A stretch of 64,000 nt of DNA, taken from contig JBDHIO010000002.1 of the NCBI GenBank assembly GCA_039587355.1, forward strand, positions 95,824 to 159,823, in the 5' to 3' direction. Position 1 is the first letter of the stretch. Each line of letters opens with the position of its first letter. A program made the translations under genes and the position numbers. The notes beneath the pieces were generated by a model. The model saw only the letters and a program-made list of their open reading frames with translations. It did not search any database and had not been told where the DNA came from. The DNA is from Gemmatimonadota bacterium. GTDB lineage: Bacteria > Gemmatimonadota > Gemmatimonadetes > Palauibacterales > Palauibacteraceae. This document shows, piece after piece, positions 54,699 through 56,893 of the stretch.

Positions 54699-55676
54699 GT
54701 GGTGAGCGGAGGAAGCGGTTTGGAGACCTCACGACAGCTGCTCGGACCCGAGCGACTGCTGATGATGGCGATCGAGCTCGGTCACGCGCCCGATCCCGTA
54801 TGGGACGCGATCGACGAGCTCGCCGACCACAGGATCGAGAACCTTCTCGAGATCCTGCGCGTCGCGCCATCCGGATCCTGGGTAGCCGCCGACGCCTGGC
54901 ACCGCGCCGTCACACCCGCGCGCCTTCGATCGCTCGTCGATTCCGAGAACCCGAATCTCGAGACGCTCGAACGCATTCTGACGCGCATCGAAGCCGCCGA
55001 CGCGGGTCTCTTGCTCGACCTGCTGACCGAGACCGATTCGCTGGCAAAGCGAAAGCGGCTGTTCACGAGGCTCGTCGAGCTCGCACCGGTCATCGCCCCT
55101 GAGATCATTCGGCGACTGCGGGACGATCGCTGGTTCGCCCGCCGGAACATGCTCGCCCTCATGGGGGAGATCAGCGAATGGCCCTCGGGGTGGTCCCCCG
55201 GCGACCATGCCGGAGACTCGCACCCGATCGTCCGGCGAGAGGCGTTCAAGCTGATGCTCAAGGTCCCGCGGTCGCGTGACCGCGCGGTGTGCGGGCTCCT
55301 CGAGGACACGGACCGGAAGGCTCGCAGCCTTGGGCTCGCGGCCGCCGTCGAGTCGTGTCCGCCCGAGGCGATCGACCTTCTCGCGGGAGTGGTTCGCGAC
55401 GAAGACGTCTCTCCGGAACTGCGGCTCATGGCGGTACGCGCGCTCGGTCGGGCCGGCGATCCCGCGGCAATCGAGCCTCTGGTGGAACTCGTTCGAAAAG
55501 GCGGCGGTCTCGGGCGAAACAAGCTGGCCGACAAGTCGCCGGTCATGCTTGCGGCGCTCCAGGCTCTCTCGACGCTCCCGGACGGGACCTCCGAAAGCCG
55601 GAAGCTCGTGGCGCGGGCGGCCAAATCCGGGGACCCCGACATTCGGGCCGCGGTAGGCGGGGCGCGGGGAGAATGA
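54699..55676 (+). CDS. HEAT/ARM-like repeat protein
   Basis: Repeated alpha-helical pairs with PExR/LG motifs ([28 protein letters not shown]...). GTG at 54699 per the ORF track (alternative ATG at 54762). ATGA overlap with the downstream HD-GYP gene. Confidence 0.5.
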
Positions 55677-56893
55677 GAGAGGCCGCCAGGTTCCTCGAGA
55701 CGCTGTCGGACCTCCTCGACGTCGTGACGCGCGACGGGATGGAGTCCGGCGAGCTGGCGCTACTTCTCGAGGCGGCGAGAAAGGACGTCGAGACGATACG
55801 CCTCGCCGACCCGGCGGCAAAGTTCGAGATCGGGGAAGGCGATGTGTTCTGGCGTGGGCGAGCTCTCGCCGGAACGGTGGACTGGCCATGGCGGCAGCGT
55901 CTGCTCGCCGCGGAGGTCGTCAAGTTGGCCCCGCCAGACGAGACGGAGGCCTTCCGCTCGTGGGTCGCTGCCCTGGCCGGCCGATTCGTCTCCGTCGAAG
56001 AGGCCGCCGGGGACGCGCCGGCCGACCCGGTGGCCCCGATCGAACCGGGCCCCGCTCCGGGGGAGCCATCCGGCGGGCCGCCCGCGGCCGTCGTGCCCCC
56101 CGCCGCCGGGTTCGGCCTGCAGGAGGAGACCGAGCGGGCGTGGTGGCTCCACGGCGAAGCCGCGAACCGCGGTCAGGTGCCTCGCCGGGAGACCGAAGAC
56201 CTGATCGAGATCCTCGTTCGCTCGCTCGGCCGGGGACTTGCCGCGGCAACCGGTCGAAGCCTCGACCGCTTCGATGAGTTCACGACGATTCACGCGGTGA
56301 ACGTCTCTCTACTCGCCATGGGCGTGGGGCGGCACCTCGCCTTCGACGATGCGGAGGTCCGCGCGCTCGGTGTCGCGGGTCTCTATCACGACGTCGGGCG
56401 GGTCCGGCTGGACGAACGGTCCCTCGGCGATGACCCGGCCTCGGAGGCACGCAGGGCCCTGCAGACGGGGCACGCGGAGGCGGGCGCCCGGGTGCTCATG
56501 GACTCCGGAGCCTGGTTCTCGCTGGCGGCCGTGGTCGCCTACGAGCACCACCTCACGTGGCGCGGCACGGGTGGTTATCCGACGCTCCAATTCGCGCGTG
56601 CGCCACACCAGTTCAGCCGCATCATCGCGGTCTGCGACACCTACGACGCCCTGAGGACCGAGCGCGCGCACCGACCCGCCCTCGCGGCGGAGGCGGCATC
56701 GGAGTACCTGCGCATCCTCGCTGGCAAGACGCTCGACCCCGAGATCGTCACCGGGGTCACCGGGTACGCGTCGGAGTCCATCACCTGGATCCAATCCCCG
56801 CGCACGAGACCGGAGGCGACACTCGCAGACGTCCGCTGGCTTCCGGACTCGGGCTTCGACCCCGACTTCGAACCGCGCCCGCTCTCGATCTGA
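55673..56893 (+). CDS. HD-GYP domain protein (putative c-di-GMP phosphodiesterase) with a novel N-terminal domain
   Basis: ATG at 55673. C-terminal half has HDVGRVRL (HD) and YEHHLTWRGTGGYP (HHExxDGxGYP-like), plus IAVCDTYDALRTERAHR (the DxxxAL/R motif typical of HD-GYP). Confidence 0.65.
   Translation: MREAARFLETLSDLLDVVTRDGMESGELALLLEAARKDVETIRLADPAAKFEIGEGDVFWRGRALAGTVDWPWRQRLLAAEVVKLAPPDETEAFRSWVAALAGRFVSVEEAAGDAPADPVAPIEPGPAPGEPSGGPPAAVVPPAAGFGLQEETERAWWLHGEAANRGQVPRRETEDLIEILVRSLGRGLAAATGRSLDRFDEFTTIHAVNVSLLAMGVGRHLAFDDAEVRALGVAGLYHDVGRVRLDERSLGDDPASEARRALQTGHAEAGARVLMDSGAWFSLAAVVAYEHHLTWRGTGGYPTLQFARAPHQFSRIIAVCDTYDALRTERAHRPALAAEAASEYLRILAGKTLDPEIVTGVTGYASESITWIQSPRTRPEATLADVRWLPDSGFDPDFEPRPLSI

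Follow-up and report, generated by a model that had tools for sequence, protein, structure and literature searches.

Genes A and B are a pair of overlapping genes in a 64,000-nucleotide stretch of a Gemmatimonadota genome (assembly GCA_039587355.1, contig JBDHIO010000002.1, positions 95,824 to 159,823; the whole stretch is referred to below as the window, and coordinates are those of the window unless a locus is named), and the pair is a conserved unit throughout the phylum Gemmatimonadota. We lean, on balance, toward the view that it constitutes a dedicated two-gene module, in which B would be a catalytic HD-GYP phosphodiesterase and A its translationally coupled, HEAT-like accessory subunit. 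The product of gene B belongs to an already-known family, the HD-GYP proteins (ProSite PS51832) of the binuclear type, with an atypical nucleotide-binding loop; the pairing and the N-terminal domain are what is new.

Organization of the gene pair

The two open reading frames (ORFs) are on the forward strand, as are all of the features described in this section, with the HEAT-like gene A preceding the HD-GYP gene B. The stop codon of A (TGA, 55674-55676) and the start codon of B (ATG, 55673-55675) share the sequence ATGA (55673..55676), giving an overlap of 4 bp, and GGGGAG lies just upstream of this junction. The overlap of the HEAT gene with the start of a 406-residue protein, recorded in the initial annotation, is borne out by the coordinates and the translation, and the HD, HHLTWRGTGGYP, and CDTYDALR sequences cited there are all present in the gene B product. 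The longest ORF for gene A begins with GTG at 54699 and specifies 325 residues, but TTG at 54720 is more likely to be the start because homologues open at a matching M(E/D)TSRxLLGPER sequence, because an identical protein of 318 residues has been recorded (P0050), and because what reads as a Shine-Dalgarno sequence, GGAGGA (54708..54713), is located 6 nucleotides 5' of the TTG. With this start, gene A (54720..55676) specifies a 318-residue short form of a HEAT-like (PBS-lyase-type) α-solenoid partner, as indicated by Pfam, by profile searches of the PDB, and by a hidden Markov model (HMM) of the longer partners described below; its HEAT_2 repeats are at 55296..55499, corresponding to residues 200-267 of the 325-residue ORF translation.

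Gene B (55673..56893) was characterized by matches to Pfam HD_5 and HD, by an AlphaFold2 model, and by Foldseek. Its product is composed of an N-terminal domain (residues 1-112; 55673..56008), which is identified by a family HMM and is confidently modeled, a disordered linker rich in Pro and Ala (residues ∼113-146; 56009..56110), in which the predicted local distance difference test score (pLDDT) is low, an HD-GYP catalytic domain (residues ∼147-370; 56111..56782), delimited by an 18-member family alignment and by alignment with the structure 4mcw, and a C-terminal tail (56783..56890) containing a clade-conserved motif, WLPDSGFDPDFEPRP, that is kept in all relatives having a short partner. No σ70-like promoter or intrinsic terminator was found within 54300-58200, and the 64-kb window contains no tRNA and no Rfam match.

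Conservation of the pair

The distribution of the pair was determined by a locus scan with an alignment of the partner (A) that covered one genome per species, with metagenomic contigs added. The scan identified 66 loci, 65 in Gemmatimonadota and one in Thermodesulfovibrionales, and wherever the contig extends beyond A, the next gene on the same strand is a B homologue; counted more strictly, there are 71 A-B modules. The genes are separated by exactly −4 bp in 48 of the 69 pairs that could be scored, by −26 bp in 8, and by −8 bp in 6; 64 of the 69 overlap or are within 4 nucleotides of each other, and a separation of more than 4 nucleotides is present in only 3. It should be noted that a 4-bp overlap is commonplace by itself and that it is the conservation of the overlap that exceeds chance. 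Searches with the individual proteins give the same picture. Only ∼26 family members were retrieved with the gene B protein, all of them metagenomic, and those with enough flanking DNA all have A upstream with a 4-bp overlap; the gene A protein retrieved ∼50 relatives, of which the named ones are all from Gemmatimonadota.

The genes that flank the pair in the window accompany it only in loci L001-L019 and L023; genes for LptF/G, the epimerase, GDP-mannose dehydratase, the GIY-YIG protein, the DUF547-VTT protein, and the M48 peptidase are otherwise absent within 5 kb of the pair in L020-L072. Among 53 Gemmatimonadales loci, the A and B families are the only ones common to more than 16. The synteny of the HEAT gene with HD-GYP genes in other genomes, on which the earlier suggestion of a dedicated partner had been made to depend, is thus found at every informative locus among the 66 genomes, with other neighbors differing. 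Ten loci (L037, L059, L061, L062, L042, L049, L028, L035, L068, and L069) contain tandem modules in the order A1-B1-A2-B2. In these, A1 and B1 have their best matches in one module of another genome, as do A2 and B2, each paralogous module being orthologous across genomes; because each A and its own B match the same foreign module, the pair appears to have been duplicated and to have diverged as a unit.

Two variants of the module were also observed. B genes in which the HDxGK motif reads RDVGM, considered further below, are found in L028, L032-L036, L041, L042, L044, L052, L065, and L068 (e.g. L032:5941-7197) and mostly overlap the partner gene by 26 bp. The locus from Thermodesulfovibrionales (Nitrospirota; L073:3513-6804) encodes a long partner of 718 residues, followed after 1 nucleotide by a 377-residue HD-GYP-like protein that has GHP in place of GYP and is without the RxxK motif; the module therefore occurs beyond Gemmatimonadota, in a degenerate form.

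Fold and active site of the gene B product

The gene B product matches Pfam HD_5 (PF13487; 1.8e-10, 41.3 bits, cut-off 27.2) and HD (1e-09), each above its cut-off, over residues ∼206-358. The AlphaFold2 model (pLDDT 85.7) contains a compact α/β domain at residues 1-112, a disordered linker, an all-helical domain from residue ∼147, and a short C-terminal tail; pLDDT is below 50 for residues 114-144, and the sequence and length of the linker are free to vary among relatives. The top matches of the model in a Foldseek search of the PDB are PmGH, the GAF-HD-GYP protein of Persephonella marina (4mcw), PA4781 (4r8z), DvhD (9rbz), Bd1817 (3tm8), and V-cGAP3 (5z7c), all with a probability of 1.00.

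The predicted ligands of a binuclear metal center, His207, His239, Asp240, His267, His292, His293, and Asp322, are invariant in the 18-member family alignment and align residue by residue with His189, His221, Asp222, His250, His276, His277, and Asp305 of PmGH. The GYP motif (Gly301-Tyr302-Pro303), which is preceded by one additional residue (WRGTGGYP), is also invariant, as are Arg331 and Arg334 of an RxxR motif. With the seven ligands and the Tyr of GYP intact, the degeneracy of the catalytic residues that had been named as one ground for rejecting the annotation was not found. The position of the third-metal ligand in PmGH, Glu185, is occupied by Phe203, the family having Phe, Tyr, or Leu there; the Glu or Asp that characterizes the trinuclear subclass is absent, and gene B is therefore assigned to the binuclear subclass according to the criteria of Galperin & Chou (10.1101/2021.11.05.467447). 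Enzymes of the binuclear type usually stop at pGpG. From its sequence, the gene B product is likely to be catalytically competent, but its substrate affinity and specificity are uncertain, for reasons considered below.

The HEAT-like partner and its long form

Gene A specifies a HEAT-like repeat protein, as judged from profile scores: its product matches Pfam HEAT_2 (PF13646) with an E-value of 7.9e-12 and 45.7 bits (cut-off 27.7) and HEAT_PBS with 22.0 bits (cut-off 20.9), and alphaRep proteins, which have HEAT-like repeats, were matched in a profile search of the PDB (up to 4e-19). It is more constrained than its partner, being 81/77/55% identical to its homologues as compared with 70/66/35% for B. 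In most lineages, the partner is a much longer protein of 655-737 residues, typically ∼670-700. The window protein aligns without gaps to the C-terminal ∼300 residues of these long partners with 31-32% identity and covers positions 357-670 of their 674-position HMM (E 1e-93); it corresponds to their C-terminal, HEAT-like 47%. Long partners at L017-L019 are in the same gmd/GIY-YIG neighborhood as the window pair, from which it follows that one clade lost the N-terminal half of A by a deletion in situ; the rest of the 64-kb window contains no gene for that half. The long partner, about twice the length of the window protein, is the ancestral and still the commonest form, and the window pair has been reduced from it. 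For the long partner's central region, neither Pfam nor the PDB contains a relative.

The short-partner clade is also distinguished by a conserved acidic C-terminal tail on B (WLPDxGFDPDxEPRP), and a related motif, FDADTE, is present in L014-L019. It is a matter of speculation whether this tail docks onto the Arg-rich solenoid of A.

A domain shared by both proteins

The first ∼105 residues of long A and of B are homologous (hhalign probability 97.9%, E 3e-13) and have the signature FLxxLxxALxxxxxYPxGHP, here designated the YPxGHP motif. The N-terminal domain of B in the window is a diverged member of this family (HMM 8.7e-27), the motif having been lost in the window clade; its model (pLDDT 92.8) has secondary structure elements in the order α-α-β-β-β-α-β-α. 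The initial annotation described the N-terminal 200 residues of the protein as being none of REC, GAF, or PAS and as containing a Pro/Ala-rich linker. The first statement agrees with a domain search of residues 1-200, and the linker is present, but the domain is smaller than was implied, since the new domain is limited to residues 1-112, with the linker at 113-146 and the HD-GYP fold beginning at ∼147. Neither residues 1-200 of B nor the shared domain has a match in Pfam or NCBIfam, a sequence-profile search of the PDB with the domain gave no relative, and Foldseek with its model gave nothing below an E-value of 0.88. The REC, GAF, PAS, DUF3391, and DUF3369 sensor domains were each considered as identities for the domain and were rejected on sequence and fold. 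When the domain profile was used in an exhaustive HMMER search, 3,969 clusters (50% identity) were retrieved at E ≤1e-3, of which 843 reached E ≤1e-10; the best 150 of the 3,969 are long-partner proteins or fragments, plus the TPR artefact P0255. A word-indexed profile search retrieved 34 short fragments of long partners and no new architectures. The possibility that A is itself a degenerate HD-GYP paralogue was also rejected, since only the N-terminal domain, and not the central region, aligns between A and B.

A distant protein of another lineage, P0103 (L074:6001-7575; 524 residues), combines a weak match to the domain with HEAT repeats, and the gene for a 549-residue protein ends 4 nucleotides upstream of its gene.

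The state of the domain in B varies with the length of A. In all Gemmatimonadota loci with a long A, B keeps LYxxxHP, whereas in 10 of the 13 true short-A loci either the motif or the entire domain has been lost. Six of the short-A loci, including the window, are without the motif but keep a conserved, confidently folded domain; in L003, L004, and L023, the whole domain is missing from B, which is a protein of 264 residues. The short-A loci that keep the motif are L014-L016, and in L012 it is degenerate. This pattern of decay is that expected if the two N-terminal domains cooperate.

Proposed mechanism and alternative interpretations

In the mechanism that we favor, B would be a metal-dependent phosphodiesterase of the binuclear type, most likely nicking cyclic di-GMP (c-di-GMP) to pGpG, and A a non-catalytic HEAT-like α-solenoid that is made together with B through translational coupling and acts on it as an accessory subunit with a regulatory or scaffolding role. 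In the ancestral form, the common ∼105-residue YPxGHP domain would most plausibly pair the subunits or sense a shared signal. In the lineage of the window, A appears to have lost this domain together with a central region of ∼230 residues, and the B domain its motif, so that the remaining contact would presumably be between the HEAT solenoid and either the HD-GYP domain or the acidic C-terminal tail. We infer from the comparative data that A and B form a physical complex in fixed stoichiometry, as well as the roles proposed for A and for the N-terminal domain and the assignment of c-di-GMP as substrate. A more far-reaching version, which we put forward tentatively and consider possible rather than probable, is that the pair constitutes an obligate heteromeric cyclic-dinucleotide phosphodiesterase holoenzyme of an undescribed kind, docking through the structurally novel YPxGHP domain, perhaps with a composite ligand- or metal-sensing site, and that the window lineage has given up this interface together with the KPG loop, which would point to a rewired interaction and possibly a new substrate.

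Several observations weigh against the favored mechanism. In the window clade, the KPG loop, to which the second guanine binds, is replaced by Gly252-Asp-Asp254 and is one residue shorter, the Lys of HDxGK is replaced by Arg243 (HDVGR), and the RxY[K/R] motif has become RAHR, both basic residues being kept; KPG and HDxGK (as HDLGK) are kept in more distant family members. The changes in the window clade imply that c-di-GMP binding is possibly weaker or specificity altered. The description of the protein as a clear HD-GYP consequently holds for its fold, profile matches, and metal ligands, but the altered loop and Lys make its substrate and activity less certain than that description conveys. 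In 11 related modules, HD is replaced by RD and the Lys of HDxGK by Met (RDVGM) while the partner is kept; these B proteins are probably catalytically dead because the His of HD has been lost, and pairing therefore does not depend on catalysis in every lineage, so that a receptor or trigger role stays conceivable. The correlation between A and B identities across modules (Spearman 0.80) partly reflects shared phylogeny, and the distant protein P0103, with its N-terminal domain and HEAT repeats, has no HD-GYP neighbor.

Some of these points would be accounted for if B of the window clade were no longer a c-di-GMP phosphodiesterase but acted on another messenger, such as 3'3'-cGAMP (cyclic GMP-AMP), or served as a ligand-binding or trigger protein through A. 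Besides the change of KPG to GDD, of the HDxGK Lys to Arg, and of RxxK to RAHR, it may be noted that the cGAMP-specific V-cGAP3 has RPYR at the same position as RAHR, that motif changes have been tied to altered specificity (Galperin & Chou, 10.1101/2021.11.05.467447), that the sister modules with RD for HD retain the partner, and that DvhD provides a precedent for an HD-GYP domain acting as a c-di-GMP receptor (PDB 9rbz; PMC13090378). However, the window clade shows no variation in the seven metal ligands or in the Tyr of GYP, and this speaks for catalysis having been retained; because it is main-chain atoms of KPG that touch the base, a change in side chains may be tolerated, and the definition of the RxY[K/R] motif admits Arg. 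We consider a loss of c-di-GMP phosphodiesterase activity to be unlikely.

It is less probable again that A and B are co-expressed in one pathway without binding to each other, A serving other proteins as an independent scaffold or adaptor. Repeats of the HEAT-like kind bind proteins generically, as the alphaRep matches illustrate, and A-like proteins without an HD-GYP neighbor are present in another lineage, but such an arrangement does not readily explain why coupling through overlapping codons is retained in most of the 69 pairs, why the genes have been duplicated together and diverged as a unit, or why both proteins carry homologous N-terminal domains, that of B decaying after A has lost its own. 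Coupling, co-duplication, and a shared domain are typical of the subunits of one complex. We regard as very improbable a role of the pair as a mobile conflict or defense module, for example one degrading cyclic-oligonucleotide immune signals: HD-GYP enzymes are able to degrade cGAMP and PADLOC gave a single, weak match for A (a generic HEAT-ARM model, 9e-06), but it gave none for B or the long partner. The module is single-copy and chromosomal, its stable neighborhood in the window clade is consistent with vertical inheritance, the genes beside it in the window are not those of mobile elements, and the G+C content there is uniform.

Comparison with known systems

Among solved structures, PA4781, a REC-HD-GYP protein from Pseudomonas aeruginosa (4r8z), is the best match to gene B in sequence (9.6e-13) and one of the top matches in fold. 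Both proteins are without the third-metal Glu, so that a binuclear center is expected, but control of PA4781 is exerted by a receiver domain fused to it, and no partner gene is dedicated to it, whereas gene B combines an N-terminal domain not described before with a Pro/Ala linker, a changed KPG loop, and a translationally coupled HEAT-like partner. PmGH (4mcw/4mdz) has the HD-GYP fold in common with gene B, and its seven binuclear ligands, together with Tyr285 and Arg314, have counterparts there; it differs in having Glu185, which is associated with a trinuclear center and hydrolysis through to GMP, where gene B has Phe203, in having KPG and HDxGK in place of GDD and HDVGR, and in having an N-terminal GAF domain, which the N-terminal domain of gene B is not. 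The Bd1817 family (DUF3391-HD-GYP; 3tm8) resembles gene B in combining a cytoplasmic N-terminal domain of ∼110-120 residues and of unknown function with HD-GYP. HD-GYP proteins, some of them degenerate, are found in other protein complexes, including RpfG with GGDEF and PilZ proteins, HnoD, which inhibits HnoB, and DvhD, but in no case is the partner a HEAT-like protein whose gene lies upstream and overlaps, nor do partner and HD-GYP protein have a domain in common.

The core of protein phosphatase 2A consists of a HEAT-repeat A subunit and a metallophosphoesterase C subunit on separate polypeptides and is an analogy, not a homologue. The likeness would lie in the pairing of an all-helical HEAT solenoid with a binuclear metal-dependent phosphohydrolase; the catalytic subunits are unrelated in sequence and fold, and the bacterial pair has an additional, shared N-terminal domain. 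Nothing relevant was found in the literature on HD-GYP proteins with HEAT repeats or on c-di-GMP and HD-GYP in Gemmatimonadota, and neither the obligate association of the two genes, nor the N-terminal domain that their products have in common, nor the long partner's central region turned up in Pfam, NCBIfam, PADLOC, the PDB, or such literature as could be searched.

Flanking genes

Upstream of the pair in the window are genes for LptF, LptG, an NAD-dependent epimerase, and GDP-mannose 4,6-dehydratase (49822-54540), associated with cell-envelope glycans and lipopolysaccharide, which are partly divergent from the pair and whose link to it is clade-specific. A forward-strand gene for a 360-residue GIY-YIG protein resembling the middle part of UvrC (56898-57980) begins 4 nucleotides after the B stop codon and is probably co-transcribed with the pair; it is not a full-length UvrC, and its position after the pair is confined to L001-L019 and L023. 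On the reverse strand, a gene for a 503-residue fusion of DUF547 and VTT (57973-59484) converges on the GIY-YIG gene, the 3' ends overlapping by 8 nucleotides; it is also found in the vicinity of the pair in L005 and L007, two loci whose neighborhood is otherwise different. In 11 Gemmatimonadales loci, a GAF-PAS-PAS-PAS histidine kinase gene is directly 3' of the pair (e.g. L046:7105-9663, forward strand) and may represent a signaling link to it.

Implications

Of the c-di-GMP phosphodiesterases, the HD-GYP proteins form the class that has been studied less, and their commonest architectures carry "undefined N-terminal domains" (Galperin & Chou, 10.1101/2021.11.05.467447). One such domain, comprising ∼3,970 clusters and without a counterpart in Pfam or the PDB, has now been delimited. 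The pair is a well-supported lead from comparative genomics and is not surprising in principle; the presence of the domain in two different co-encoded proteins leads to the hypothesis, concrete and open to test, of an HD-GYP enzyme built from two subunits, the accessory one being HEAT-like. Nature has supplied a deletion series for this purpose, with long and short partners, B proteins in which the N-terminal domain is intact, decayed, or absent, and active sites with HD or RD, in a phylum, Gemmatimonadota, that is abundant in soil and in which second-messenger signaling has barely been studied.

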